A stretch of 64,000 nt of DNA, taken from positions 82,090 to 146,089 of the forward strand of contig DATDSO010000010.1 of the NCBI GenBank assembly GCA_035291225.1. Direction: 5' to 3'. Below, one piece after another: positions 1,775 through 54,070 of the stretch (position 1 is its first letter; each line of letters begins with the position of its first letter). The notes beneath the pieces are model-generated. The model saw only the letters and a program-made list of their open reading frames with translations. It was not told the DNA's origin and did no database searches. Made by a program: the position numbers and the translations under genes. Source of the DNA: an archaeon. GTDB lineage: Archaea; Aenigmatarchaeota; Aenigmatarchaeia; Aenigmatarchaeales; JACQIB01.

Positions 1775-2389
1775 ATGAAAATAAAATCTGGTGAAAAAAT
1801 GCCGCTAACACTAACAAAAGAAACAATAATCAGCGAAGTGATAGAAAAATATCCGGCAGTTGCGGAAGTTTTGTCAGAGGCAGGATTGGGATGCGGTGGC
1901 TGCTCTTCCAGCGAGGGAGAGACAATCGCAGATGGTTTAATGTCTCATGGATTAACAGGCGAGGATGTTGATTCTTTCCTTGAGCAGATAAATACGCAGA
2001 TTGCTGCGCTTGAAAAAGCTGGCACGTTTAATGAACAAAAAGAAGAAAATGAAAAACCGAAACAAATTATAATCACAGACCCTGCAGCGGAAAAAGCAAA
2101 AGAGCTTATGAAAAAGCAAAATTTGAACGGAGAGCATGCTCTTAGAATAAAAGCGACCCCCGGCGGCTGCGCAGGCTTCAGGTATGGAATGGCTTTTGAC
2201 AAGCTTGCGAACGCAAACGGAGATGTTGTGCTGGAAAAATCCGGGCTTAAAATCCTTCTTGACCAGAAAAGCGCAGAGCGCTTGGGCGGGACAACAATTG
2301 ATTTTGTTGAAGATTTGGAAGGCTCGCGGTTCGTTTTCAACAACCCGTCGGCCAAAGCCACCTGCGGCTGCGGAAAATCCTTCAGATGA
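1775..2389 (+). CDS. Fusion protein with an N-terminal DUF1858-like redox domain (CGGC) and a C-terminal A-type Fe-S carrier (IscA/SufA/HesB).
   Basis: The C-terminus ends in the canonical HesB/IscA motif ...ATCGCGKSF. The N-terminus has the GLGCGGC motif typical of hybrid-cluster-associated DUF1858. Confidence 0.7.
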   Translation: MKIKSGEKMPLTLTKETIISEVIEKYPAVAEVLSEAGLGCGGCSSSEGETIADGLMSHGLTGEDVDSFLEQINTQIAALEKAGTFNEQKEENEKPKQIIITDPAAEKAKELMKKQNLNGEHALRIKATPGGCAGFRYGMAFDKLANANGDVVLEKSGLKILLDQKSAERLGGTTIDFVEDLEGSRFVFNNPSAKATCGCGKSFR

Positions 2390-2422
2390 AGCTTTATATA
2401 CCACTTAGGAGTAAATTATAGT

Positions 2423-2692
2423 ATGTCTAACTTCAGAATTGAGCATGACCGGCCCAACTGCATTGCCTGCGGAGCTTGCGCTGCTGTGACTCCGGATTTT
2501 TGGGAAATGAGCCCGGCGGATGGAAAGTCTGATATCAAAGGCTCGGAAAGAATTATGAACGGCGGCTCAGAAATTGTTTTGGAAAAACTTTCAATAGAGG
2601 AAAAAGATTTTCAGATAAACAAGGACGCGGCAGACGCATGCCCGGTTAATGTTATTCACATTTTCAAAGAAAGCGGGGAGAAGATAATTTAG
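2423..2692 (+). CDS. Small single-cluster ferredoxin.
   Basis: CIACGAC...CP cysteine pattern (CxxCxxC...CP). The ORF is about 89 aa. Confidence 0.6.
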   Translation: MSNFRIEHDRPNCIACGACAAVTPDFWEMSPADGKSDIKGSERIMNGGSEIVLEKLSIEEKDFQINKDAADACPVNVIHIFKESGEKII

Positions 2693-7924: not shown

Positions 7925-8584
7925 TCAGCAATAGCACCCATAAGGCCCGCGGCCGCAGGACACGCAGCTGTTTCCTGAGCATCTCTTGCATCCGCTGCAC
8001 TGGGAATCATTTGTGCAGTCCACATCCACGCATTTTTTGTTTGAGCAAATTTGTTTGTAGCCGCAGGCTGAATTTGAGGTGCATTCGGCTGTTGTGGTTG
8101 TTGCGGGCAATGTAGTTGTTGTGGTTGAAGAAGTGGTAGTTGAAGGAGTTGTTGTAGGAGGCAATGTAGTTGTTGTGGTTGAAGAAGTTGTTGTTGAAGA
8201 ACTTGTTGTTGTGCTGCTGCTTGTCGCAGATGTTGTTGTTCCTTGCGGAATGTTTTGCTTTAATCCCGCAGATTCCTTAACCGCGCAAACAACCTGATAA
8301 GTTTTCGCGTCCATCCAAACTATTAGCTTTGTATCGTTGCCTTCATCATCAATTGTTGTTTTGTAATAGCTGCCGACTTGAAAATTCTCGCAGTCTTTTT
8401 TTATTTCTTCCATCCGCGAAACAATCTCTCCCTGGCTAATTAGGCTTGTGGCAATTTTTGCATTCGGATATTGTGAAAGAAAATTCTGAATAGCCGGACT
8501 TGCTTTCAAATAAAGATCAATTTGGCTGGCTGTGCAGCCTGCCACCAGAACAACTCCCAGAAGCAAAATAGAAATTATTTTCAT
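7925..8584 (-). CDS. Secreted lipoprotein with a Thr/Ser-rich linker and a C-terminal Cys-rich domain.
   Basis: Signal peptide plus lipobox LVAGC. A (T/S)n linker is present. The C-terminus reads CTSNSACGYKQICSNKKCVDVDCTNDSQCSGCKRCSGNSC. Confidence 0.6.
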   Translation of the reverse strand: MKIISILLLGVVLVAGCTASQIDLYLKASPAIQNFLSQYPNAKIATSLISQGEIVSRMEEIKKDCENFQVGSYYKTTIDDEGNDTKLIVWMDAKTYQVVCAVKESAGLKQNIPQGTTTSATSSSTTTSSSTTTSSTTTTTLPPTTTPSTTTSSTTTTTLPATTTTAECTSNSACGYKQICSNKKCVDVDCTNDSQCSGCKRCSGNSCVSCGRGPYGCYC

Positions 8585-15087: not shown

Positions 15088-15275
15088 GATATTTTTGGTC
15101 CCGCGGGGGAGATTTGAATTTGGGAATAAAAATTTATTTTTTTATTTCTCCCAGCCTCACGATTTCTTTTTTATTTCGAAACGCTGACTAAAAAATTCTT
15201 GCTTGTGCGCAAAAATCTACAGTCGTGCGCTCCACCATCTCTCCGCGCGCAAACTTTTATGTGCGCGATTGAGCT
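15088..15275 (-). tRNA. tRNA-Tyr(GTA) with three putative introns (D-loop, canonical 37/38, T-arm).
   Basis: On the minus strand, acceptor CCCGCGG pairs with CCGCGGG followed by A-CCA (C1:G72, an archaeal Tyr identity). Anticodon stem CACGA/TCGTG with loop CTGTAG..A. T-loop TTCAAAT. D-stem GCTC...GAGC. Total length is 188 nt, so about 110 nt of insertions are inferred. Confidence 0.5.
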
Positions 15276-15309
15276 ACCGCGGGTTGAAAATTATTTAGTC
15301 TGCTTAGCA

Positions 15310-15325
15310 TTAAAAAGCTTTTTAA
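15310..15325. promoter_or_regulatory. Perfectly palindromic BRE/TATA element TTAAAAAGCTTTTTAA, a candidate bidirectional promoter for 5S rRNA (+) and tRNA-Tyr (-).
   Basis: The 16-nt perfect palindrome is centred ~30 nt upstream of the 5S 5' end and ~33 nt upstream of the tRNA-Tyr 5' end on the opposite strand. Confidence 0.5.
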
Positions 15326-15347
15326 ACTTTCCTTTGCTTACAAATAA

Positions 15348-15464
15348 TGGTCGCGGCCAAGGCGGAGCGGCAAGACCTGTTCCCATTCCGAACACAGTAG
15401 TGAATCGTTCCAGCGATTTTGATTGTACTGCCGAAAAGGCGGGAAGTCAAAGACGCTGCGGCCA
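15348..15464 (+). rRNA. rrf: 5S ribosomal RNA.
   Basis: Loop C CCCAUUCCGAACACAGUAGUGAA matches the universal 5S CCGAAC...AGUGAA pattern. A downstream GAUUGUACUG...GGCGGGAA is present. A terminal helix TGGTCGCGGC pairs with GCTGCGGCCA. The ORF 15199-15483 over it is spurious. Confidence 0.8.
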
Positions 15465-15755
15465 CACTTTTAATTTTCTTTAAGAAGTTTGTAAAAGAAA
15501 TTTTTTCATGGCATTTGTATATTTTGATGTGGAGAGAGATCTGGTTGTAGTAGCCAAAAATAGAGGTCTTTACGGAATAGATTTAGGAGAACTTCCGTAT
15601 AGAATGAGAGCGGTTGAAACAGAAGAATATTCTTTTAAAGATTTTAGATTGCTTTTAGTAAGGGAACAGATTTCATGTTTAAGATTTTTGAGATTGGTTC
15701 ATTCCCCACCCAAATTATCAAACATTTAAATATTGTTTCTGCAAACTTGCTTTAT

Positions 15756-15862
15756 GCCCGAGTAGTATAGTGGCCTAGTATGCGAGCTTGTCATGAAATT
15801 TTTTAAAGAAAAATTTCAACAGAAAGCTTGTGACACGAGTTCAAATCTCGTCTCGGGCGCCA
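15756..15862 (+). tRNA. tRNA-Asp(GTC) with a canonical ~31-nt intron after position 37/38.
   Basis: Acceptor GCCCGAG/CTCGGGC plus G-CCA. Anticodon stem CGAGC/GCTTG with loop TTGTCA(T). T-arm ACGAG-TTCAAAT-CTCGT. A TATA-like TTTAAATA lies 28 nt upstream. Confidence 0.75.
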
Positions 15863-15874
15863 ACAAAAAATCAT

Positions 15875-16044
15875 GGGCCTATAACTCAGTCTGTGAGCGC
15901 CCGCGCTCAATCCGGCAAGGGCTTCACCTGAAATGGCAGAGTACAAGCCTTTTATCAATTTTGATAAAAGAATTGAGATGCGAAAATTTCGCATCCGTGA
16001 AAGAAAGCTTGGAGTCGTGGGTTCGAATCCCACTAGGCCCGCCA
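15875..16044 (+). tRNA. tRNA-Lys(TTT) with two putative introns (D-loop and canonical 37/38).
   Basis: Acceptor GGGCCTA/TAGGCCC plus G-CCA. T-arm GTGGG-TTCGAAT-CCCAC. Anticodon stem CAAGC/GCTTG with loop CTTTTA. The D-arm ACTC-AGTCTG[insert]GCA-GAGT is interrupted by ~41 nt. Total length is 170 nt. Confidence 0.55.
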
Positions 16045-28574: not shown

Positions 28575-30206
28575 ATGGAAAAAAGTTTATTCTGGGCAGA
28601 CCAGCTCGCGGATGAAGTCGAAGCTCGGGCGAAAAAAGAAAAACTTCCAGCAGTAGTGCGCTGCGGGCAAACACCAAGCGGTGGCAAGCATATTGGAAAC
28701 CTGAACGATGTTGTGCGCGCATATTTTGTTTACAAATCCCTTTTAGAGCGCGGAGTTGAAGCAAAATTTATCCATTCAAGTGATGACCGTGATCCACTGA
28801 AAGACGTTCCTAAAAGAATTGCAGACTTGGAGGGAAACTGGCACGACTCCGCGAAATTCCCAGAGCTGAAAAATTTTCTTGGAAAACCATTGTGCAGAAT
28901 TCCTGACCCGTTCAAATGCTGCAGCTCTTGGTCAGAGCACTTCACAAAAGTCTGGGAAATTGGCTTGAACGCAATTGGAATGAAACCGAAAATTGTTTCC
29001 AATGATGAATACTACAAAGCTGGAAAGTTTGAGCCTTACATAAAAAAATTTTTTGAAAAAATAAAAGCTGCTGGAAAAATCGCAGCGAAATTCCAGCAGA
29101 CAAAATCCGAGGACTACATTCCATTTGACGCAATCTGCCCAAAATGCGGAACGCTCACTAACATTTCTTCCTTTGATTTGAAAACGAAAAAAGTTTTTTT
29201 CACTTGCGGGGGCAAAGCAATAAAGAAAAAAACAGCCGAGGGCTGCGGGTTTGAAGGCTCTGTCCCATGGTCAGAGGGAAAATTGCAGTGGAGGTTTGAA
29301 TGGCCTGCTCAGTGGGCAATTGAGAAAACAACTTTTGAGCCAATGGGAAAAGACCACTGGGAAGGCTCTTGGAAAAGCGGGGAAGTTATCGCGCGCGAAA
29401 TTTTTGAAATTGAGCCGCCGATTCCGTATGTTTATGAATTTTTTCTTGTTGACGGGCAGAAAATGTCCGCGAGCGTTGGGAATGTTATAATAGTTCAGGA
29501 TATTTTGAAAGTCATTGAGCCGGAAATTTTTATTTACTTTTACACAAAAAGGCCAGGAAAGCAAAGGGATTTTTCAATGAAAGAAATTTTCAGGCTTGCT
29601 GATGAGTTTGAGAATGTTGAGAAAAGATATTTTGAGCACGAGAAGATGGAAGATGAACACGAAAAAGCAAATATTGAGCGCTCCTATTTCATGAGCATGG
29701 AAAAAATTCCGAAAAGTTTGCCAGTAAGAATTCCATTTACTTTCGCCAGCATGGTTAGCCAGATTGTTCCAAGCGAAAAAATGCTTGAGAAAGCGCTCGT
29801 GCTTTTGAAATCAACCGGGCATGTTTCTGGAAAAATTTCCGAGGCTGATAAAAAAATAATTTTGCAGAGGCTGGAGCGCGCGAAATTCTGGGCTGAGAAT
29901 TATGCGCCGCCGGAATACAAAATAAAATTGCTGGACGCGCCGGCGGTAGAAATAATTTCAAAATTGAGCACAGGGCAAAAGCTTGCCCTGCATGATTTGG
30001 AAAAGGATTTGCTGAAAAAAACTTTCAAAGAAAAAGAATTGTATGGCCGAGCGATGGAAATTGCAAAAGCCCGCGGGCTTGATGCAAAAGAATTTTTCTC
30101 TGCCGCTTACTTGGTTCTTTTGGGAAGAGAGCAGGGCCCGAGGCTCGCGCAGTTTATTTTGGCTGTTGGGCAGGAAGAGGTTGCGAAGAGGATTGAGAAA
30201 CTTTAG
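28575..30206 (+). CDS. lysK: Class I lysyl-tRNA synthetase.
   Basis: HIGN (HIGH motif) and KMSAS (KMSKS motif) are present. The Zn-binding CPKCG...C is present. Size 543 aa. Confidence 0.9.
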   Translation: MEKSLFWADQLADEVEARAKKEKLPAVVRCGQTPSGGKHIGNLNDVVRAYFVYKSLLERGVEAKFIHSSDDRDPLKDVPKRIADLEGNWHDSAKFPELKNFLGKPLCRIPDPFKCCSSWSEHFTKVWEIGLNAIGMKPKIVSNDEYYKAGKFEPYIKKFFEKIKAAGKIAAKFQQTKSEDYIPFDAICPKCGTLTNISSFDLKTKKVFFTCGGKAIKKKTAEGCGFEGSVPWSEGKLQWRFEWPAQWAIEKTTFEPMGKDHWEGSWKSGEVIAREIFEIEPPIPYVYEFFLVDGQKMSASVGNVIIVQDILKVIEPEIFIYFYTKRPGKQRDFSMKEIFRLADEFENVEKRYFEHEKMEDEHEKANIERSYFMSMEKIPKSLPVRIPFTFASMVSQIVPSEKMLEKALVLLKSTGHVSGKISEADKKIILQRLERAKFWAENYAPPEYKIKLLDAPAVEIISKLSTGQKLALHDLEKDLLKKTFKEKELYGRAMEIAKARGLDAKEFFSAAYLVLLGREQGPRLAQFILAVGQEEVAKRIEKL

Positions 30207-30210
30207 AATT

Positions 30211-30564
30211 TTATTCAACCAAAATTTCATCTTCTTCAGACCAAGGCGGATTGCAAGCAACCAATATCTCCGCGTCTTCTTTGCTGGTTTTCCATGCCTT
30301 ATGATTTGTATTTGGAAAAATCATTATCATCTGACCGTTTTTCAGATGTTCAATTTTCTGGTCAATCTCCACATCTATTGAGCCTTTTAACACATAATAA
30401 ACTTCTGTAAGTTTTCTGTGATAATGTTTTTTTGTAGAATCTTTTATTGTGATATGAACAAAATCCATTCCCAAAAAATCTTTAGAATCTGTCAGCTTTC
30501 TCATTACACCACATGAAATTTTCTTTGGTTCCGCGGCTTTGATATCTCTTGTTATATGTGGCAT
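30211..30564 (-). CDS. Cupin-domain protein.
   Basis: Two-His cupin motif HYHRK...YYVLKG and the segment GQMIMIFPNTNHKAWK. Confidence 0.55.
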   Translation of the reverse strand: MPHITRDIKAAEPKKISCGVMRKLTDSKDFLGMDFVHITIKDSTKKHYHRKLTEVYYVLKGSIDVEIDQKIEHLKNGQMIMIFPNTNHKAWKTSKEDAEILVACNPPWSEEDEILVE

Positions 30565-30566
30565 AA

Positions 30567-31301
30567 CTACTTCCCAAACCTTCTCTCCCTCTTCTGAAAA
30601 TCCTCAATCGCTGCAAAAAAATCTTCCTTTGTCAATTCAGGCCATGCTTTTTCAAGAAAAGCAAATTCGCTGTAAGCAGACTGCCACAAAAGAAAATTGG
30701 AAATTCTGCGCTCGCCGCCAGTTCGTATAATCAAATCAGGATATGGCTGGCCGTTTGTGTAAAGAGTGTGGCGGACTAAATCCTCTGTAATAATTTTCGG
30801 ATCAATTAATCCCTCGGAAACCTGCTTCGCAATTTTTACCACAGCATCAGTAATCTCTTCCTGACCGCCGTAGGCAATTGCAAAATTCAAAAAGAATTTG
30901 CTGTAATTTTTTGTTGCTTCTTCGGCTGCGCGAATTGCTTTCTGGACTTTTTCAGGAAGCATCCAGATGCGGCCGATGACTTTTATATTTATTTCATTTT
31001 CAATCATATCTTTATTTTCTCCGCGTGCAATTTCCAGAAAATTTCTTTCCATTAGATCCATAATAAAATCAAACTCCTCTTTCGGGCGGCCGAAATTCTG
31101 TATCGAAAAAGAATAGAAAGTCGCGCGCTTTATCCCAAGCTCTTTGCACCACTCGCAGAACTCGCGGACTTTTTTCGCGCCCCACTCATGTCCTTTCCAC
31201 GGCTGGAGCATTAATCTCTTTGCGAAGCGGCGGTTGCCATCCATTATAATTCCAATATGCTCGGGAATTTTTCCTGCGGATAAATCTGTCATAAAGCTCA
31301 T
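30567..31301 (-). CDS. uppS: Cis-prenyltransferase (undecaprenyl/dehydrodolichyl diphosphate synthase).
   Basis: The motif HIGIIMDGNRRFAK and a C-terminal RTGGERRISNFLLWQ. Confidence 0.85.
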   Translation of the reverse strand: MSFMTDLSAGKIPEHIGIIMDGNRRFAKRLMLQPWKGHEWGAKKVREFCEWCKELGIKRATFYSFSIQNFGRPKEEFDFIMDLMERNFLEIARGENKDMIENEINIKVIGRIWMLPEKVQKAIRAAEEATKNYSKFFLNFAIAYGGQEEITDAVVKIAKQVSEGLIDPKIITEDLVRHTLYTNGQPYPDLIIRTGGERRISNFLLWQSAYSEFAFLEKAWPELTKEDFFAAIEDFQKRERRFGK

Positions 31302-39749: not shown

Positions 39750-40352
39750 TTTACTCAAAAGTCTGTTAGGTCTTTCTGAAATTAGCTTTTTTAGAGTCTC
39801 TCTTTTTCTAAATTCTAAGCTATCGGTGTGATTAACTGAAAGCTTTATTTTATGTATTGATTGATGTTCATAATCTCGCCAATGTTAGCAATTTGAATAT
39901 GGATTCCTCCTCAGCTTTCTTGGTAGTAATTACTGATATTTCGAACTCCACCGATTTATTTATATAAAAACCTTTTCCAATCCCTTTTCGATTTGCTCTA
40001 AAGAATCTTTTAAAAATTCTTCTATGTCATTTACCATTTGAATCTTGTCATACTAGCTTCTCATAGTTTATATTGAAAAACATTTCAACAACTTATGAGA
40101 AATTTTGGTGCGGGAGGAGAGAATTTCTTTATATCCAAAAGCAATTTTCCTTTTTGGATAAGCCCTAGCCTTTTTCGAGAAAAAGGCTTGGGTTTGAACT
40201 CTCGTATGGACTAACCAACTAGGCCCTCAACCTAGCACGCTTGCTCAGCGCATCTGCAGATTATCTTATTTTTCTGCATCTGCTCTTCGCTTTTGACCAG
40301 GCTACGCGACTCCCGCGTGCAATTTAATAAAGGTTTGATATTATTAAATCTT

Positions 40353-40910: not shown

Positions 40911-42308
40911 ATGCAACCCCAGCTTCAAATCAAGAAAAAACACGTCCGCACAATCAGCGGAGTTGCTCCATTAACAGTTGTGGTTAAACCATGGACTTGC
41001 CCGGGAAAATGCACTTATTGCCCTGAGGCAACTGATGGGACTCCTAAGAGCTATACGGAAAAAAGCGCGCCTGTTATTCGCGGCCGCGAATGCGGCTGGG
41101 ATGCAAAAAAACAAACTGAGGCGCGGCTAAAAATTTTTAATTTAATGGGCCACCCGACTGAAAAAGTTGAAGTGCTTTTGCTCGGCGGGACTTTTCCAGC
41201 TTATCCGCAAAATTATCAGGAGGAATTTGTGAAAGGAATTTTTGACGGGCTGAATGGATTTGCTTCTGAAAATTTACAGCAGGCAAAACTTGCGAATGAA
41301 ACTGCCCAGCACAGATGCGTGGGGCTTTGCATTGAAACTCGGCCAGACTGGTGCGGAAAGGAAATTATAAATAATTTTTTGGACTATGGCTGCACGCGCG
41401 TTGAGCTTGGAGTGCAGGCTTTAGACGAAAAAATAAATTTGCGCACCCAACGCGGGCACGGAATTGCTGAAGTCGCTGGAGCTACAAAAATTTTGAAAGA
41501 TTCTGCCTACAAAGTTTTCTATCATTGGATGGTTGGGCTGCCGGGCTCTACACCTGAAAAAGATTTGGAAATGTTCAAAGAGCTTTGGAAAAATCCAAGC
41601 TTTCGGCCGGACGGATTGAAAATTTATCCAACTCTTGTAATCAAAGAGACAAAATTGGAAAAAGAATTTTTGGCAGGGGAATTTGTTCCGTATACAAACG
41701 AGCAGATTGTTGAAGTTGTTTCAAATCTGAAAACTCTTGTGCCGCGCTACTGCAGGCTCGCGAGAATCATGCGCGCGATTCCCGAGGAGTATATTGTTGG
41801 CGGCTCAAAAAATTCCCATCTGCGGGATGAAATAAAAAATTACATGAGCGCGCGTGGTATGAAGTGCGAATGCCTGCGTTGTCGCGAGGCCGGATTCTTT
41901 TCAAAAGCCGGCGGGGCAGTGGATCTTGAAAATATAAAGTTGAACAGAATTGATTATGAAGCGAACGGTGGGAAAGAAATTTTTTTGGCAATTGATGAAA
42001 TGAAAAATGATCTTATGCTCGCGCTCCTGAGATTGAGAATTCCGAGCGCGCCGTTCAGAAAAGAAATCTCCGCTGGCACTGCGCTTATCAGGGAAATCCA
42101 TACTTTTGGCCAGCAGATTCCAATTGGAACAGAAGGAAATATTCAGCACGCGGGATTCGGGAAAATGCTTTTGGCAGAAGCAGAAAAAATTGCGCTGGAA
42201 GAATTTTCATGCAAAAAAATTCTCGCAATTGCTGGCGTGGGCGCGCGGGAATATTTTCGGAAGTTTGGATATGGGAATGATGGGGCGTATGTGAGCAAAA
42301 ACTTATGA
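40911..42308 (+). CDS. elp3: Elp3 homolog (radical SAM plus GNAT; tRNA wobble-uridine modification).
   Basis: Radical-SAM CPGKCTYCP motif. A C-terminal GNAT motif QHAGFGKMLL. Size 465 aa. Confidence 0.85.
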   Translation: MQPQLQIKKKHVRTISGVAPLTVVVKPWTCPGKCTYCPEATDGTPKSYTEKSAPVIRGRECGWDAKKQTEARLKIFNLMGHPTEKVEVLLLGGTFPAYPQNYQEEFVKGIFDGLNGFASENLQQAKLANETAQHRCVGLCIETRPDWCGKEIINNFLDYGCTRVELGVQALDEKINLRTQRGHGIAEVAGATKILKDSAYKVFYHWMVGLPGSTPEKDLEMFKELWKNPSFRPDGLKIYPTLVIKETKLEKEFLAGEFVPYTNEQIVEVVSNLKTLVPRYCRLARIMRAIPEEYIVGGSKNSHLRDEIKNYMSARGMKCECLRCREAGFFSKAGGAVDLENIKLNRIDYEANGGKEIFLAIDEMKNDLMLALLRLRIPSAPFRKEISAGTALIREIHTFGQQIPIGTEGNIQHAGFGKMLLAEAEKIALEEFSCKKILAIAGVGAREYFRKFGYGNDGAYVSKNL

Positions 42309-43107: not shown

Positions 43108-43294
43108 GGGCCCGTAGTCTAGTTTGGTAGGATACCAGCTTGGGGATTCCTAAGCTAAAGAGAAGCCGAAATGCTGGCGACCTGTGTTCAAACGGCCTTT
43201 TCTTTCATGGAAAGAAAAGAACCGAGGAAAAGAAAGATATAATCCAAAAAGGCATATCACCTTCAGTCATATGAAAATCACAGCGGGCCCACCA
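43108..43294 (+). tRNA. tRNA-Pro(GGG) with two putative introns (canonical 37/38 and within the T-arm).
   Basis: Acceptor GGGCCCG/CGGGCCC plus A-CCA. Anticodon stem CCAGC/GCTGG with loop TTGGGG. T-stem CTGTG-TTCAAAC...[~85 nt]...CACAG. A TATA-like ATTTATAAA lies 33 nt upstream. Confidence 0.55.
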
Positions 43295-45469: not shown

Positions 45470-48400
45470 ATGGGTTGTAATAAATTATTATTAGCTCTTG
45501 CTGTATTTTCTATTTTAATAATTTCTGTAGCAGCAACTCCAGCGCTTGCCGCAGATCCTGTAACAGATTTTTTTAATTGGCTTTTTGGAGTAACCGGAGC
45601 GCAGACAGGAAATGAAACTCCGGCATCTTCAAGCAGCACAACATCAAGTTCAACCACAACAACTACATCAATACCCAGCTGCGAGGGACCAATACCTTCT
45701 TCAGGATGTACATGTCCCAGTCCGGGCGGACCCGTTTATTATAGCGGCTTTTGTTGTAGCAATACTTATCAGGCCTCTACAGCTTGCGGAACAACTTCAA
45801 CTTATACTACAGCAACTTCCTCCTCTTCATGCCCATCTTCTGTCCTTTCTGTTTTAGGAGAAGGATGCCACTTCATGTACACCGGAAGTGATGGAAGATC
45901 TATTTATTGCAACAGCGGAATGACGCGCTCAATGAAAGAGAGCGACACAGCAGCGAAAGACGGATGCACGTCTGACACAACCACAACAACTTATTCCGGA
46001 ACAACAACCTCCTCTCTTCCTTCCACAAGCACCCCATGCACAATTGGCTCTGCGATAACTTCTCTCTGCAACTGCGGCGGGTATTCTTATAATTCTGGAT
46101 ATTGCTGTTCTTCAACATCGGGTTCAGGAAGCGGATATTTCCAGAGCAATGCCTGCGGGACAACCACAACTTATTACACTTCAACAACTTACTCTTCAAC
46201 ATGCCCTTCCACTGTTCTTTCTGTTTTAGGAACAGGATGCCATCAGATGTATACAGGAAACGATGGTAAAACAATTTACTGCGATAGTGGAATGACGCGC
46301 TCAATGAAAGAAGGAGACACCGCCTCAAAAAGTGGATGCACATCTGAATCAAATGTTTGTAGTTCCTCAAATCCGTGGTATTGCTATGATCAAACTTCTT
46401 GCACAGGAGTCTCTGCAAACTGGTGCAAGAGCAGCAGCACAAGTGGCGGATATTGCTCAACCTCAACATGCCCAACTTGTTCAAAGGACAGCGCATGGAA
46501 TTGTTATGACCAGAGCGGCTGCACAGGAGCTGGCGGAAATTGGTGCCAATCAGGAGGTTCAAGTTATGGATATTGTCAAAATTCTGCATGCCCAACCTGC
46601 AGTTCTTCGAGTCCATGGAATTGTTATGATGAAACTTCTTGCAAAGGAGCAACAGGAAATTGGTGCAAGAGTTCTGCCTCCTCGGGAGGAACTGCTACAT
46701 ACAGCTCTGGCTGGTGTTCTTCAAGTTCATGCCCAACCTGCGCCTCAACTTCAAAATATAATTGTTATACAGAAACAGACTGTAAAGGAGCAACAGGAAT
46801 CTGGTGCGGTTCTCAATCAGGTTCAGGAGGATATTGCGGTGAAGCGGTTTGCCCAACTTATACTTGTTCAAAGAGCGAGCCATGGAACTGTAAAGACCAA
46901 ACAACTTGTTCTGGCGCAGGAGCGAGCTGGTGCTCCGGCTCCGGAGGATATGGATATTGTTCAAGCTCATGCCCAACCTGCGACAAAACTAATCCGTGGA
47001 ATTGTTATACAAAAGAAGCGTGTACTGGCGTGAGTGCGCAATGGTGTTCGGGCTCGGGTGGTTATGGATATTGTTCCAGTTCAACATGTCCAACATGTAG
47101 CTCAACAACAAAATATAATTGTTACGATGAAACTTCCTGTAAAGGCGCAACGGGAAGCTGGTGCATTTCCCAATATGGAGGAAGCGGTTGGTGTCAAGAT
47201 TATTCATGTCCAACTTATACTTGTTCAAAATCAGAACCTTGGAATTGTAGAGATGAAACAACCTGTAAAGGTGCAGGAGCAAGCTGGTGCGGCAGTTGGT
47301 GTCAAACTAGCTCTTGCCCGACTTGTTCAAAATCTCAGATATGGAACTGCAACACAAAAGAAACTTGTACAGGAACAGGAGCAAACTGGTGCACAAGTCA
47401 AAATATAGCTTATGCTACGGCAGCGGGTGGAGCAGCAGCATCATCGCCACCGTCGTCTGGTTGGTGTCAAGAATCTTCCTGCCCAACTTACGCTTGTTCG
47501 AAAACAGAACCTTGGTATTGTTATGACCAGAATTCTTGCTCAGGAGCAGGAGCGAGTTGGTGCACTGGTTATGGCGGAGCAGGAGGTTATTGCCAAAGCG
47601 GATCCTGCCCAACTTATACATGCTCTTCTTCAAATCCATGGAATTGTTTCAAAGAAGAAGAATGCAAAGGAGCAGGAGCGCGGTGGTGTGTGACAACATC
47701 ATATGGAACTACCTTAAATGGGTGGTGCTCAAATTCCTGCCCAACTTGCAGCTCAACACAAAAGTATAATTGTTTTGATAAAACTTCCTGCGCGGGCAGC
47801 GATGGATACTGGTGCGGTACAGAATCAACAGGATGGTGCGCTGACCAAAAATGCGCCACTTGCAGTACAACCCAGCCATGGAACTGTTATGATAAAGAAA
47901 CATGCACAGGGGCAAGCGGAAGTTGGTGCACAAATCAATACAGCACTTATGGATCAACCGCAGTTGTTTCATCCGGCTGGTGCCAATCTAATGATTGCCC
48001 AACATGTTCAAAATCCCAGCCATGGAATTGTTTTATTGAAACAGACTGCAAAACAAACGGAGGCAACTGGTGCGGCACGTGGTGTCAAGACAGCTCATAC
48101 CAATGCCCATCAACAAAGGGCTACAATGTAGAGGAGAAAAAAGAAAATTTCATAAAACCTGAAAATTGCAAAGAGCAAAAAGATTCTAATACAGGTTACA
48201 CTAATTATGTTTGTGAAAAGAAGACTGAAGAAAAATGTCCAGAGCTTTCGGTAGATGTAAAAGAGAAATGCGAATCAAATAGTGGAAAGCTTACGATAAA
48301 GAAAGATAGGCGTGGCTGCGAATTTACAGACTGCAGATTCAAAGAAGAGTTTAATCCAGACAAGAAATTTATTTTAAAGAAATTTGACCGCTGCCCAACA

Positions 48401-49423
48401 GATGCTGAATTAAATGAATATCAAAGTTCCTGCGAAAAATCTGGCGGCACACTGAAAACAAGCTTGGAAGGCGGTTGTAAAATAGGATTTTGTTTGAACG
48501 CTGATGAGAATGAATGTGAAAGAGAAATAAATCCAAAGTTTGAGAAAGAGATCGAAGAGAAATGCAAGAAAGAGGGACTTGTGGTTGTGAAAGACTTTGA
48601 TCCGCGCGGCTGCACGGTTTTGCACTGCGGCGAACAAGACTTCTGCAAGAAAGTCCCGAAGAATGCTTATAGTGAGTGCGAGAACCAAGGCGGTGAGCTT
48701 GTTGTTAAAACAGATGAAAGAGGGTGCGCGACTTTCTCTGAATGTGTAAGGCCTGGAGATGAAAAAGTTTATTTGGAGGAGCATGAGAAAATAACTGAAA
48801 TTCCGGATGAAACAGAATTGCTTTCCCTTGCTTTGAAGCTCGAGGAATTAAAAGTTTCGTTTGATAAGATGTCAACTCAGGCAAAGGATCTGGCTAATTA
48901 TTATAAATCAACAGGAAGTTCAGAAGCTAAGAAGTTAACAAGAGTCGCAGATATGTTTGCTGCTGCTACTGGAAAAATAGATGAAATAAAAACAGCATTG
49001 AGAAACAAACTAACAACAATAACGCCGGCTGATTTAGAGGAGATAAAGCTTGAGATAAGGACAATCAGGAAAGTGACTTTGAAGGACATTTTGTATGTTA
49101 TGCTTAGCACAAAAGATGATGTGAAAGATATCGTTGATGAAAAGGAAAAAGATTGCGGCATAGATGGGCTCTGCTTTGACAAGAGCTTCAGAATATGCCA
49201 AAAAGCAATAATGAGATCTGACCAAGAGGGAACGTTTGTAAGAATAACTGGAGAAAGCGATGGAAAGTGCTTGATGGAAGCTGAAGCAAAAGTCGCTGGA
49301 ATCGCAGTTTCAATGAAATGCGAAGTGCCGAACTATGCTCTTGGATTTAAGAACCCAGAAACAGATGTACTTCCATACTGCACGGGCGGTTTAGTTGATG
49401 CTATAAAAACGGGAAAGGTTTAG
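45470..49423 (+). CDS. Giant secreted Cys-rich tandem-repeat protein (putative surface/adhesin protein).
   Basis: N-terminal signal peptide. S/T-rich tracts. More than 20 tandem ~40-aa modules of the form CPTC-x(3-5)-WNCY-x(3)-C-x-GA-x-G-x-WC. Four C-terminal C..C..GC..C modules in a Lys/Glu-rich region. Confidence 0.75.
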   Translation: MGCNKLLLALAVFSILIISVAATPALAADPVTDFFNWLFGVTGAQTGNETPASSSSTTSSSTTTTTSIPSCEGPIPSSGCTCPSPGGPVYYSGFCCSNTYQASTACGTTSTYTTATSSSSCPSSVLSVLGEGCHFMYTGSDGRSIYCNSGMTRSMKESDTAAKDGCTSDTTTTTYSGTTTSSLPSTSTPCTIGSAITSLCNCGGYSYNSGYCCSSTSGSGSGYFQSNACGTTTTYYTSTTYSSTCPSTVLSVLGTGCHQMYTGNDGKTIYCDSGMTRSMKEGDTASKSGCTSESNVCSSSNPWYCYDQTSCTGVSANWCKSSSTSGGYCSTSTCPTCSKDSAWNCYDQSGCTGAGGNWCQSGGSSYGYCQNSACPTCSSSSPWNCYDETSCKGATGNWCKSSASSGGTATYSSGWCSSSSCPTCASTSKYNCYTETDCKGATGIWCGSQSGSGGYCGEAVCPTYTCSKSEPWNCKDQTTCSGAGASWCSGSGGYGYCSSSCPTCDKTNPWNCYTKEACTGVSAQWCSGSGGYGYCSSSTCPTCSSTTKYNCYDETSCKGATGSWCISQYGGSGWCQDYSCPTYTCSKSEPWNCRDETTCKGAGASWCGSWCQTSSCPTCSKSQIWNCNTKETCTGTGANWCTSQNIAYATAAGGAAASSPPSSGWCQESSCPTYACSKTEPWYCYDQNSCSGAGASWCTGYGGAGGYCQSGSCPTYTCSSSNPWNCFKEEECKGAGARWCVTTSYGTTLNGWCSNSCPTCSSTQKYNCFDKTSCAGSDGYWCGTESTGWCADQKCATCSTTQPWNCYDKETCTGASGSWCTNQYSTYGSTAVVSSGWCQSNDCPTCSKSQPWNCFIETDCKTNGGNWCGTWCQDSSYQCPSTKGYNVEEKKENFIKPENCKEQKDSNTGYTNYVCEKKTEEKCPELSVDVKEKCESNSGKLTIKKDRRGCEFTDCRFKEEFNPDKKFILKKFDRCPTDAELNEYQSSCEKSGGTLKTSLEGGCKIGFCLNADENECEREINPKFEKEIEEKCKKEGLVVVKDFDPRGCTVLHCGEQDFCKKVPKNAYSECENQGGELVVKTDERGCATFSECVRPGDEKVYLEEHEKITEIPDETELLSLALKLEELKVSFDKMSTQAKDLANYYKSTGSSEAKKLTRVADMFAAATGKIDEIKTALRNKLTTITPADLEEIKLEIRTIRKVTLKDILYVMLSTKDDVKDIVDEKEKDCGIDGLCFDKSFRICQKAIMRSDQEGTFVRITGESDGKCLMEAEAKVAGIAVSMKCEVPNYALGFKNPETDVLPYCTGGLVDAIKTGKV
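46340..48110 (+). repeat. Coding tandem repeat array (about 22 six-cysteine modules, ~115-130 bp each) inside the giant gene.
   Basis: Recurring nucleotide words (tcatgcccaacctg, ccatggaattgttat, ggtgcaagag) at ~120-bp spacing. Opposite-strand ORFs over this region are repeat-induced artefacts. Confidence 0.7.
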
Positions 49424-51213: not shown

Positions 51214-51609
51214 TTAAAAATATTTTCTCTTTTTTCTATCAAATCTTGGGGAGGATATTGCAAGCAAAGTTAAACCTTTCATGTTTTTGTATTTGGTTCC
51301 ATGGGGCAGAAAAACCAAATCGCCTTTCTTTATTGTAAATTCTTTTCCCTCAATAATGCATTTTCCTTCGCCTTCCAAAACAAAGTAGGCAACATCGCTT
51401 TCCTTGTCAACACCAAGCTTTATGTCGTTCCCGACTTTTCTGACTATTGCAATGCTGAACTTCGGAAATTCTCGTGTGTTCAAAATGTCTGTTACTTTTG
51501 TATCGCCGAAATCATTCTCTTTCAAATCTTCTGCTCTGATAATTTTTGGTTCCATAAAAATTCTAGAAGAATTTTTGTGGCGCGAAAAGCTTTGCTTTTT
51601 TGCTGTCAT
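51214..51609 (-). CDS. Cupin-domain protein.
   Basis: Conserved cupin beta-barrel motifs (G(x)5F(x)2G...LPHGTKY). Confidence 0.55.
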   Translation of the reverse strand: MTAKKQSFSRHKNSSRIFMEPKIIRAEDLKENDFGDTKVTDILNTREFPKFSIAIVRKVGNDIKLGVDKESDVAYFVLEGEGKCIIEGKEFTIKKGDLVFLPHGTKYKNMKGLTLLAISSPRFDRKKRKYF

Positions 51610-52517
51610 AATATCACTTTCATCCCATCCTTCCCAACAATCGAATTCTTAAAAACTTTTTTTGCAGCAGCCAGAGTTTCTTTCGTATCTTTGTATCTGC
51701 GACTTAAATGCACGAGCGCAAGTTTTTTCACAGAATATTCTTTTGCGAGCGCAGCCACATCAGCAACAGCAGAGTGCGCTCTTCCTTCAACTGCTTCTAT
51801 AAAAGTTCCGTCATGAATTAACAAATCCGCGCCTGCGGCTGCGCGGAAAAATTCCTCTGTTGGCAGGCAGTCGCCAGAATAGGCAAATTTTCTGCCGAGA
51901 GAAATTTTTGAAATTTCGCTCAGGTTTATTGTTTTGTTTTTTATTTTCAATGAGCCTTTTAGTTTGAGCTCGCTCAACTGTGGTCCAATCTCCAAGCCAA
52001 ATTTCTTCGCCAGCTTTATGTCAATTTTCACATGAGGCTTTTCCGAAAAAACAAATCCGCAGGCAGGCACGCTGTGCTTTACTGGAGTGGAAAAAATTTC
52101 ATATTCAGAATTTTCAAAAAGTTTTTGTTTTTGTTCTATATCGCAGTCAATTGCGCGGATTTCAAAGCCAATTCCATAATAGCTCAGCTCCACAATTCCA
52201 TCAATAAATCGCGAGGCCTCTGGAGCGTAAATTTCTAATGGATTTTTTCTATCTAGGAGGTGCATTGTTTCAATCAACGGAAGCAAACCCGCAAAGTGGT
52301 CAGCGTGCCAGTGGGAAATGAAAATTTTTGAGATTTTCAGAGGAGAAATATTTTGCTTTTGCAAACCTAACTGGGCGGATTCACCGCAGTCAAACAGAAA
52401 AACATCCGCGCCCCTGCGCAAAACATAAGCAGCCTGCATTCTTTTCTCTGATGGAATTGAAGAGCCTGTTCCGAGAAAAAAGATTTCAAGTGGGAGGGGC
52501 ATGCAAATTGTGGGCAA
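51606..52517 (-). CDS. rnz: Ribonuclease Z (tRNA 3' endonuclease, metallo-beta-lactamase fold).
   Basis: The HWHADH motif and an FLGTGSSIP N-terminus. Size 303 aa. Confidence 0.85.
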   Translation of the reverse strand: MPTICMPLPLEIFFLGTGSSIPSEKRMQAAYVLRRGADVFLFDCGESAQLGLQKQNISPLKISKIFISHWHADHFAGLLPLIETMHLLDRKNPLEIYAPEASRFIDGIVELSYYGIGFEIRAIDCDIEQKQKLFENSEYEIFSTPVKHSVPACGFVFSEKPHVKIDIKLAKKFGLEIGPQLSELKLKGSLKIKNKTINLSEISKISLGRKFAYSGDCLPTEEFFRAAAGADLLIHDGTFIEAVEGRAHSAVADVAALAKEYSVKKLALVHLSRRYKDTKETLAAAKKVFKNSIVGKDGMKVIL

Positions 52518-52696
52518 CCGATAGATTTAAATATATGTGATAAGAAAATAAATTATGTCCATGGTGCCAGAATGGCCGGATAGACCAAATGTTTTTGTTG
52601 ATGAAGTTGATGAAGAAGGTGTGCCTTATGGATGGAGAGCCATGCACGCTCTTTCAGGTTCAAATCCTGACTATGAGTAGGTTTCTAAAATTTTTA

Positions 52697-54070
52697 TTAA
52701 AAATATTTTCTCAGAAAAATCCTGAAATCTTTTGTTGCTAAAATTGAAAGTGCTCGCTCGCCACAAATTAATTTTGCTTTTCTCATCGGGCCAGCGAGCT
52801 TGCTAGGAACTCCTGCAAGCAAAAGCTCTTTCTCGCTCGCAGACAAAAAGTTTTTCAGGAAACTTTCTGCTGTTGTAAATTCGCGCTCGGTTTCAACAAA
52901 CCAGTTTTCTCCCTCTATAGAAACTTTCTTGCCGGCATAGTGCTTCAAAAAGCCCTCAGATGGCTTGTGCGCGTAAATTGAAGGTCCTGCATGCTTTGTT
53001 GTTTTTGAAATTTCCCAGCTATCGAATTCCAGAATCACAACGCAGAATTTTTCGTCAAAGTAGCTGTCTGCTTTTAGAAGCCTAAAGCCTGCTTTCTGTA
53101 AACTCTGCTCAAATATTTTCAAAAGTTTTTTCAGCTGTGTCCAAATTATATCTCCATGAGTGCGCGGGCGCCCGAATTTTATTGCGCAGAAATAGGAGCC
53201 GCGCAATTTGATTTGCTTTTTTATTTCTGCTGAGCTTAGAGGCTTTTGCTGCGCTGGAAAGAAAAATTTGTCTGCTGGTTTGGAAAGGAAAGTGCGAGCG
53301 GCGAAAACAAATTTGTAAAAGCTTTCTGCAGAAACTGCTGCTGCAACGTTTCTATTTTTGTCAACTGGATCGATTACAATTAATGGAGAAGAGAATTTTT
53401 TGAAAAGCTCTGCGTGGGGGGGATTTGGATTTTTCAAGTCAATGGAAGTTCCAGCTGTCTGGTTGCCTGCAGCTTCTAAAACTTTTTGGAAGTTTCCATA
53501 TTTTAGAATTAACAATTCTGAAAGATAGCCAGAGAATCCGCTCGTGCGCAAGTCGGCTCCATAGCAGCCTGCTGCTGCCAAGAATTTTTTTAACAAGCGC
53601 ACTTGGTCTTTTTGTTCCGCGGAAATATTTTCCAGAACAAATTTCACATGATGCGGAGTGCGGTCAACTGCGGATTTTATTTTTTCTGGGAGGGCATCAT
53701 AGCATGGCACAATGTCCAAGTCAAAAGTTTCCCTACCGTGTTTTACAAGTGCGTGAACATACGGATGCTCTGCATATTCAAGCTCAAATTTTGATTTCAG
53801 AACAGAAGCGATTTTTTTTGCGAGCCCCAAGCCTTTTTCCTCAAATTCCTTCCTCTCCAAATTTTCTGGAAAAAGCAAAAACAAATCCAGCTCATTTTTG
53901 TCAGCGAGCCAAGTTCCTTTTGCGACAGAGCCGCAAATCATCGGTCTGCCTCCGAGATGTTTCGCTGTTTCAAGGAGTTTTTTCTCGAGAGCAAAAACCA
54001 TTTTTTCCTTTGCAGGAGATGGCCTGATTCTTTTCAGAACTCCAGTGAGAACGTTAGAGCTATTTTCCAT
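52697..54070 (-). CDS. cca: Archaeal class I CCA-adding enzyme (tRNA nucleotidyltransferase).
   Basis: The motif GSVAKGTWLADKNELDLFLLF (the GS...DxD nucleotidyltransferase signature). Size 457 aa. Confidence 0.85.
   Translation of the reverse strand: MENSSNVLTGVLKRIRPSPAKEKMVFALEKKLLETAKHLGGRPMICGSVAKGTWLADKNELDLFLLFPENLERKEFEEKGLGLAKKIASVLKSKFELEYAEHPYVHALVKHGRETFDLDIVPCYDALPEKIKSAVDRTPHHVKFVLENISAEQKDQVRLLKKFLAAAGCYGADLRTSGFSGYLSELLILKYGNFQKVLEAAGNQTAGTSIDLKNPNPPHAELFKKFSSPLIVIDPVDKNRNVAAAVSAESFYKFVFAARTFLSKPADKFFFPAQQKPLSSAEIKKQIKLRGSYFCAIKFGRPRTHGDIIWTQLKKLLKIFEQSLQKAGFRLLKADSYFDEKFCVVILEFDSWEISKTTKHAGPSIYAHKPSEGFLKHYAGKKVSIEGENWFVETEREFTTAESFLKNFLSASEKELLLAGVPSKLAGPMRKAKLICGERALSILATKDFRIFLRKYF

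Follow-up and report, generated by a model that had tools for sequence, protein, structure and literature searches.

Archaea in which a single tRNA gene is interrupted by several introns have been described before. In the Thermoproteales, ARMAN and a few other archaea there are up to three introns per tRNA, found at non-canonical sites that include 53/54 and 59/60, with relaxed splice motifs and with similar introns in different tRNAs (PMC4033280, PMC4090602, PMC3239211), and the relaxed motifs have been linked in the literature with special forms of the splicing endonuclease EndA (PMC4090602, PMC4033280, PMC5829648). As summarised in PMC4033280 and PMC4090602 from the work of Sugahara (2008) and Fujishima (2010), the Thermoproteales Pyrobaculum, Thermofilum and Caldivirga have relaxed bulge-helix-bulge (BHB) motifs like those reported below and similar introns at the same position in different isoacceptors, read there as intron transposition; their EndA is of the (alpha-beta)2 form, with the Crenarchaea-specific loop. 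ARMAN-1/2 (Micrarchaeota), which like our organism are small-genome DPANN archaea, have non-canonical introns with motifs of the bulge-helix-loop (BHL) or hBH type, and these introns need a broad-specificity endonuclease, which in ARMAN-1/2 is an epsilon2 (three-unit) EndA (PMC3239211, PMC3488258). Marked disruption of tRNA genes has been reported also for Pacearchaeota, Woesearchaeota, Nanohaloarchaea and Mancarchaeum, together with an alpha4-type EndA with an L3 loop (Kaneta et al. 2018, PMC5829648). The Aenigmatarchaeota lie outside the 46 species covered by that study, and our literature search found no paper on tRNA introns in this phylum. Here we have analysed a stretch of 64,000 nucleotides (nt) from contig DATDSO010000010.1 (the window, 64 kb), which holds five tRNA genes, Tyr(GUA), Asp(GUC), Lys(UUU), Pro(GGG) and Leu(GAG), all of them interrupted by one to three introns apiece.

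Very probably all of them are genuine tRNA genes that an Aenigmatarchaeota archaeon expresses, and each carries one to three protein-spliced introns of the BHB type. Within the window there are ten insertions, each of 26-85 nt, and a sixth gene of the same genome, tRNA-Ile(UAU), located just outside, is interrupted as well, so that all six sampled genes (6/6) carry introns, 12 of them together. Five of the six have two or more, at least one of these being non-canonical (Tyr 3, Lys 2, Pro 2, Leu 2, Ile 2). A preliminary description, centred on the interval 15088-16044 (which also encloses a 5S rRNA gene at 15349-15464), had recognised four of the window genes, and the Tyr, Asp, Lys and Pro genes have turned out to be real at nearly the coordinates that it gave, with introns in the numbers and at the sites that it claimed; the T-arm sites can now be refined to 53/54 in Tyr and 59/60 in Pro. 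Its statement that the exon pieces make canonical stems, anticodons and an encoded CCA was borne out by ARAGORN on the in-silico spliced products. Alongside these four, it had overlooked the Leu(GAG) gene, and the gene lengths of 170-190 nt that it quoted do not hold, the measured range being 107 to 211 nt. It had also called the interruptions a genome-wide trait. The addition of Leu and Ile, and the nine introns in three genes of the closest relative, speak for this extension, but the sample amounts to about six genes and not to the full tRNA set. On the whole the observation of tRNA introns is confirmed and its interpretation supported.

The window encodes the B, A' and A'' subunits of an archaeal RNA polymerase. 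Its RpoB is 62-83% identical to proteins of genomes labelled Candidatus Aenigmatarchaeota, and an identical RpoB is encoded in groundwater metagenomes, on contigs that reach 479 kb; the G+C content is about 41%. Judged from these sequences, the host is an Aenigmatarchaeota (DPANN) archaeon from groundwater metagenomes. The Thermoproteales, in contrast, are hyperthermophilic Crenarchaeota, unrelated to this DPANN lineage of cold groundwater, and unlike in the Thermoproteales the family of related introns described below is concentrated at one site in the T-loop, 59/60, and is marked by a conserved hairpin together with a UUAUCCNAAAAGG core. ARMAN-1/2 belong to another DPANN phylum, and the density found here, 12 introns in six genes, is very high in comparison. 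Split and permuted tRNA genes (Nanoarchaeum equitans, Caldivirga, Thermofilum) follow the same BHB processing logic and depend on the same enzymes, but here the exons of every gene are collinear, contiguous and in order within 107-211 nt, and we have seen neither separate halves nor a permuted order.

Three of the genes form a cluster of 957 nt. The tRNA-Tyr(GUA) gene (15096-15283, minus strand) consists of four exons and three introns, located in the D-loop (31 nt, 15238-15268, site 15/16), at 37/38 (53 nt, 15164-15216) and in the T-arm (29 nt, 15119-15147, site 53/54); it was matched by our own scanner (see below) and aligned with the orthologues of two related genomes (L008 and L031; relatives and other fetched loci are designated here by such L numbers), and its spliced product is read by ARAGORN as a tRNA-Tyr(gta) of 75 nt. 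The tRNA-Asp(GUC) gene (15756-15862, plus strand) has a single intron of 31 nt at 37/38 (15794-15824). The 5' end of the tRNA-Lys(UUU) gene (15875-16044, plus strand) lies 12 nt past the CCA of Asp, and the two are probably co-transcribed; Lys has two introns, of 42 nt in the D-loop (15892-15933, site 17/17a) and of 51 nt at 37/38 (15955-16005). Once spliced, they are recognised by ARAGORN as tRNA-Asp(gtc) and tRNA-Lys(ttt). The whole cluster recurs with 100% identity in six contigs, which come from different samples assembled by ENA, JGI and Logan, and is therefore no assembly artefact.

The other genes are dispersed. The tRNA-Leu(GAG) gene (40106-40316, minus strand), with a long variable arm, was found by a scan for an acceptor stem plus NCCA and by our scanner, and has two introns, none of them at 37/38: one of 52 nt in the D-loop (40241-40292, site 21/22) and one of 70 nt in the T-loop (40123-40192, site 59/60), the spliced product being a tRNA-Leu(gag) of 89 nt by ARAGORN. 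The tRNA-Pro(GGG) gene (43108-43294, plus strand) has introns of 26 nt at 37/38 (43146-43171) and of 85 nt in the T-loop (43193-43277, site 59/60); spliced, it is a tRNA-Pro(ggg) by ARAGORN, and this was the top solution when BHB motifs were enumerated together with ARAGORN. Finally, the tRNA-Ile(UAU) gene, found by our scanner on the minus strand at 6722-6902 of L036, that is 116-296 nt past the right end of the window, has introns of 31 nt at 37/38 and of 72 nt at 59/60. All six genes encode the CCA. The UAU anticodon of the Ile gene suggests that the reading of AUA does not depend here on the modified-CAU tRNA that is usual elsewhere.

Standard tools recover little of this set. ARAGORN with default settings called no tRNA gene in the window, and with the -i option it called only Asp, with the intron misplaced and the gene miscalled as Ser. 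The Rfam tRNA model matched Asp (49.6 bits) and, as a partial and sub-threshold match, Lys (24.4 bits), and relaxing the E-value added only Lys together with chance snoRNA and miRNA matches. Such failures fit the report that predictions for new DPANN genomes give incomplete tRNA sets (PMC5829648). We have searched for a 7-bp acceptor stem followed by NCCA, which revealed Leu(GAG), and have used our own structure-based scanner, in which insertions are permitted in the D, anticodon and T loops (introns within stems escape it). A first, looser version gave many false matches; once stem G+C and intron length were limited, the scan of the two strands (128 kb) yielded exactly the five genes and one false match in a coding region. 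All five lie in intergenic gaps and end in NCCA. Several candidates were rejected along the way: a scanner match at 41684-41918, which lacks a CCA and falls within a radical-SAM gene; a T-arm look-alike at 52654-52670, inside an open reading frame (ORF) of 42 codons; and the gaps 1272-1775 and 30206-30567, which are occupied by small protein genes. When the ten introns are removed in silico, products of 75-89 nt remain, and ARAGORN folds them into five full cloverleafs with the expected anticodons.

The firmest support for the exons comes from orthologous genes. In the window the Tyr-5S-Asp-Lys cluster stands upstream of rpoH-rpoB, and the orthologues were obtained via the rpoB loci of related genomes. 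Intron-less orthologues of Asp were found in four of them (L008, L015, L019 and L030) and of Lys in three (L024, L028 and L031), and all are collinear with the window exons. In the alignments of Asp, Lys and Tyr the insertions occur at the D-loop, at 37/38 and in the T-loop only, the intron-less and single-intron genes being otherwise collinear, and because these alignments show the insertions directly, the introns are defined without recourse to any splicing model. As an example, the D-loop of the spliced Lys, AGUCUGGCA, is identical to the D-loop of L008. The exon assignments of the preliminary description are thus upheld by the intron-less orthologues as well as by ARAGORN. An enumeration of BHB motifs filtered by ARAGORN was dropped as not discriminating, and the orthologue alignments were used in its place.

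We examined whether the junctions can form the motif recognised by the archaeal enzyme. In the geometry adopted, the central helix pairs the 4 nt ending two before the 5' cut with the 4 nt ending two before the 3' cut, each strand has a 3-nt bulge, and outer and inner helices flank the whole; a pair of junctions passed with >=3/4 central pairs and a flanking helix of >=4 bp. BHB-type motifs are present at every proposed junction (10/10), as compared with 0.7% of position pairs picked arbitrarily from these precursors. The motifs fall into types according to the site. Introns at 37/38 have near-canonical motifs on the anticodon stem, which are strict hBHBh' in Lys (central 4/4, outer 5, inner 2) and Pro (central 4/4, outer 5, inner 2), hBHBh' with one central-helix mismatch in Tyr (central 3/4, outer 5, inner 3) and hBH in Asp (central 4/4, outer 7, inner 0 in the strict register, with a single extra A ahead of the inner hairpin). 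The D-loop introns and Tyr 53/54 have central and inner helices only (HBh'): Tyr D-loop, central 3/4 (GCUC/GAGA), outer 0, inner 5 bp; Lys D-loop, central 4/4 (UCAG/CUGA), outer 1, inner 5 bp; Leu D-loop, central 3/4, outer 0, inner 4 bp; Tyr 53/54, central 4/4 (UGGG/CCCA), outer 0, inner 8 bp. Those at 59/60 have only the T-stem and the central helix (hBH, bulge-helix-loop), with the T-stem as a 5-bp outer helix, no inner helix (0) and a central helix of 3/4 (UUCA/AGAA) in Leu and 4/4 (UUCA/UGAA) in Pro. In all, seven of the ten motifs are relaxed. Where no tRNA stem can be borrowed, that is in the three D-loop introns and Tyr 53/54, only 0.05-0.25% of shuffled introns pass (Tyr D-loop 0.25%, Tyr 53/54 0.25%, Lys D-loop 0.1%, Leu D-loop 0.05%).

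Intron content varies markedly among the relatives. The closest one, L027 (RpoB 83%), has three introns each in Tyr, Asp and Lys (9 in three genes), while L008, L009, L015, L017, L019, L021 and L026 (RpoB 62-69%) have from zero to two introns in a gene, again at the D-loop, 37/38 and T-loop sites. In L024 and L028 (RpoB 62-64%) the Lys gene found there has no intron, and in L031, which is labelled Nanohaloarchaea (RpoB 51%), Tyr is interrupted by an intron at 37/38 and Asp by one at 59/60. These counts are lower bounds, because a scanner confined to loops misses introns in stems, such as the 21-nt intron within the anticodon stem (29/30) of a tRNA-Gly(GCC) at 8296-8471 (plus strand) of L038, a gene that also has a 59/60 intron of the family treated below. 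The gene order Tyr-5S-Asp-Lys is the same in L027, and in L008 the 5S rRNA gene also lies between Tyr and Asp, with Tyr on the opposite strand. Between the window and L027 the 37/38 introns are 94% (Tyr) and 87% (Asp) identical, whereas the Lys D-loop introns differ both in position and in sequence, and the window Asp is without the D-loop and T-loop introns of its L027 counterpart. The D-loop and T-loop introns have thus been gained or lost among the relatives, unlike the conserved 37/38 introns. In the Asp D-loop intron of L027 and L026, read by hand, the central helix stays 4/4 despite a change from U-G to U-A.

The T-loop introns at 59/60 form a sequence family that is shared by different tRNAs. 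The Pro intron is homologous to that in the T-loop of L027 Tyr, with 91% identity over 46 nt (E = 2e-11), and the first ~48 nt of the Leu intron are near-identical to the introns of L038 Glu and L039 Cys (~55 alignment columns with the T-arm flank). A hairpin starting at the 5' splice site, a UUAUCCNAAAAGG motif and the 3' end UAUNAGAAA are common to the Leu and Ile introns and to the T-loop introns of L027 Lys and Asp. When metagenome contigs were scanned for the pattern of the family, three loci came up, all in a single sample, where tRNA-Glu(CUC) and tRNA-Cys(GCA) have an intron almost identical to that of the window Leu; the viral contig collection contained no match to the pattern. The P1 hairpin of the family shows compensatory changes. 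A covariance model built from six members (R1) found copies that were not in its training set, in a tRNA-Ser(CGA), a tRNA-Gly(GCC), a Lys-like gene and the window Pro (37.7 bits, E = 1e-4), whereas the window Leu, at 105 bits, was one of the training sequences. Its strong matches are all in T-arms; a few weaker matches overlap these same hairpins in antisense. The hosts known so far are therefore Leu, Ile and Pro in this genome and Lys, Asp, Tyr, Glu, Cys, Ser and Gly in relatives. Closely similar introns at one and the same site in different isoacceptor families are the mark of the transposed intron clusters of Fujishima et al. (2010). No mutual similarity was found among the 37/38 introns of different tRNAs.

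What the motif at 59/60 takes from the exon is the T-stem and the universal T-loop UUCA, which pairs with WGAA at the 3' end of the intron. Since nothing else is used on the exon side, such an intron should be spliceable from any tRNA, and this universal requirement would explain the spread of the family through many isoacceptors; a 37/38 intron, in contrast, would have to pair with the anticodon loop of its own host tRNA. One may go further and regard the 59/60 introns as a young, actively spreading selfish RNA/DNA element and not as passive insertions, a proposal that we put forward tentatively and hold to be possible more than likely. The element would be a cassette of ~70-85 nt in which a conserved 5' hairpin and a UUAUCCNAAAAGG core are combined with a WGAA "guide" at the 3' end that pairs with the T-loop UUCA, and the guide would make the cassette spliceable from, and perhaps targeted to, any tRNA gene.

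The same behaviour could point to elements of another kind, for example miniature DNA transposons or self-splicing introns, that are removed without EndA or not removed at all. The T-loop insertions are indeed a dispersed family with a conserved hairpin and the UUAUCCNAAAAGG motif, as a mobile element would be, and their 5' splice site is without the inner helix of a full BHB. Nevertheless, we find this explanation unlikely. At 26-85 nt the insertions are far under the size of group I or II introns; no Rfam ribozyme or intron family matched in the window even at E up to 5, and with no ribozyme core they do not qualify as self-splicing introns. Neither terminal inverted repeats nor target duplications were seen in the sequences, every strong copy found is exactly at tRNA 59/60 and keeps its 3' bulge and central helix in register, and EndA-dependent introns are established at 53/54 as well as at 59/60 (PMC4090602). 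Alternatively, the genes might be decaying pseudogenes, disabled by insertions, with functional copies elsewhere in the genome. That standard finders miss them would be expected in this case, and so would the T-loop insertion of L027 tRNA-Tyr, which by hand check is without a clear splice motif. However, the exons show no damage, their stems being perfect and their identity elements and CCA in place, and they are conserved while the introns diverge, the acceptor stems even showing compensatory changes between orthologues; a splice motif can form at every insertion. Moreover, six isoacceptors within ~80 kb are all interrupted, as are all three in the nearest relative, and a second, intact set is unlikely in a small genome. 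Decay is for these reasons even less probable than a different kind of element. Least probable of all, to the point of being negligible, is that the cloverleafs are products of over-fitting, since up to three deletions might let chance structures be read from many sequences. The loose version of the scanner and the tolerance of ARAGORN (see below) illustrate the danger, but the end-to-end alignment of intron-less orthologues with the proposed exons effectively refutes it, and the filter on stem G+C left five true matches and one false in 128 kb, Asp scores 49.6 bits in Rfam independently, and all genes are intergenic and NCCA-ended.

Some observations nevertheless weigh against reading the loci as spliced, functional tRNA genes. 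Splicing itself is deduced here from sequence. ARAGORN passes dozens of artificial splice combinations and often ranks them above the true one, and for this reason its verdict is weak alone. Strict hBHBh' motifs number no more than two or three out of ten. In the anticodon and T loops the outer helix comes from the stem of the tRNA itself, so that 14-40% of shuffled introns pass as well, and at these loops the motif taken by itself is weak evidence. Minimum-free-energy folds of the precursors show the motif for 2/10 introns, with a 4/4 central helix in Lys D-loop and Tyr 53/54 and both 3-nt bulges fully unpaired in Lys D-loop; we have taken these folds as uninformative rather than negative, because the energy model disfavours 4-bp helices between bulges. 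The boundary of the Tyr D-loop intron is ambiguous between 15/16 and 17/18: the former is favoured by the motif register, at which L027 has a perfect 4/4 GCUC/GAGC helix (read by hand), and the latter would retain a 9-nt D-loop as the orthologues have. In the L027 tRNA-Tyr (2306-2565, minus strand) a hand check recognised no BHB for the T-loop intron in the standard register. This intron has a T-loop-like UUCCAAAU at its 3' end, and the window Tyr has a different intron of 29 nt at 53/54 instead, a difference that could reflect intron sliding or rearrangement. Lastly, no EndA homologue was found in the window, in ~16 kb of flanking contig or in the 40 fetched loci, and no RtcB gene in the window, the 16-kb flanks or any fetched locus; among the matches listed by an EndA profile search of public proteins there were only distant euryarchaeal enzymes, from Archaeoglobi, Methanococci, Methanopyrus and similar organisms, and none could be tied to this organism.

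For functional, spliced genes, which remain by far our preferred reading, we infer the following course of transcription, cleavage by EndA and ligation from what is known of archaeal tRNA splicing (PMC4090602, PMC4033280). TATA-like boxes can be read directly ~25-33 nt upstream of Tyr, Asp, Pro and Leu, and each gene would be transcribed as a precursor of 107-211 nt, Lys probably together with Asp. At each exon-intron boundary the precursor would form two 3-nt bulges around a 4-bp helix, EndA would cleave in both bulges, and an RtcB-type ligase would join the exons, the introns being circularised by analogy. The end product would be a standard cloverleaf with the CCA already encoded. Because seven of the ten motifs are relaxed, the enzyme should accept relaxed motifs and be of a broad-specificity kind, as the preliminary description had suggested and in agreement with PMC5829648 and PMC4033280; the kinds that would qualify are the (alpha-beta)2 form, the epsilon2 form and the DPANN alpha4 form with the L3 loop (PMC5829648).

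Some features of the surroundings deserve mention on their own account. The 5S rRNA gene between tRNA-Tyr and tRNA-Asp (15349-15464, plus strand; Rfam RF00001, 62.8 bits) is a stand-alone gene with no 16S or 23S gene nearby, and between it and tRNA-Asp lies an ORF of 73 codons (15508-15729, plus strand) that has no Pfam match and whose DNA is conserved in L027. Encoded CCA is present in the window, L027, L008, L009, L026, L017 and most genes of L015 and L031, and absent from L019, L020, L021, L024, L028 and L030; from this distribution it varies by sub-lineage within the phylum. A gene for a CCA-adding enzyme (tRNA_NucTransf2 and CAA_C; 52697-54070, minus strand) is present although the six tRNAs encode CCA, and adjoins a gene of the metallo-beta-lactamase fold (51606-52517, minus strand) that could be an RNase Z-like enzyme of tRNA 3' processing. 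The lysyl-tRNA synthetase is of class I (PF01921; 28575-30206, plus strand), as is typical of many archaea. An ORF of 1317 residues (45470-49423, plus strand) has no Pfam domain match.

These observations place a known kind of tRNA disruption in a further lineage, and with some two introns per gene the extreme multi-intron state now includes the Aenigmatarchaeota. Two things make the case somewhat more than routine: its introns are very dense, and a well-defined family of them is bound to a single universal site. In practice, standard finders see one of the five genes, so that genomes of this clade will seem to miss most tRNAs, and tRNAs missed in this way distort estimates of completeness and auxotrophy in DPANN archaea. 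The intron load shifts fast, from 0-2 per gene at 62-69% RpoB identity to 3 per gene at 83%, and the EndA of the lineage is predicted to be able to cut relaxed motifs. A compact family at one universal tRNA site bears on how archaeal tRNA introns are gained, their mechanism of transposition having been stated to be unknown (PMC4090602). If the 59/60 introns are indeed a selfish element, the near-identical copies in Leu, Glu and Cys of close relatives would be a natural system for intron transposition.

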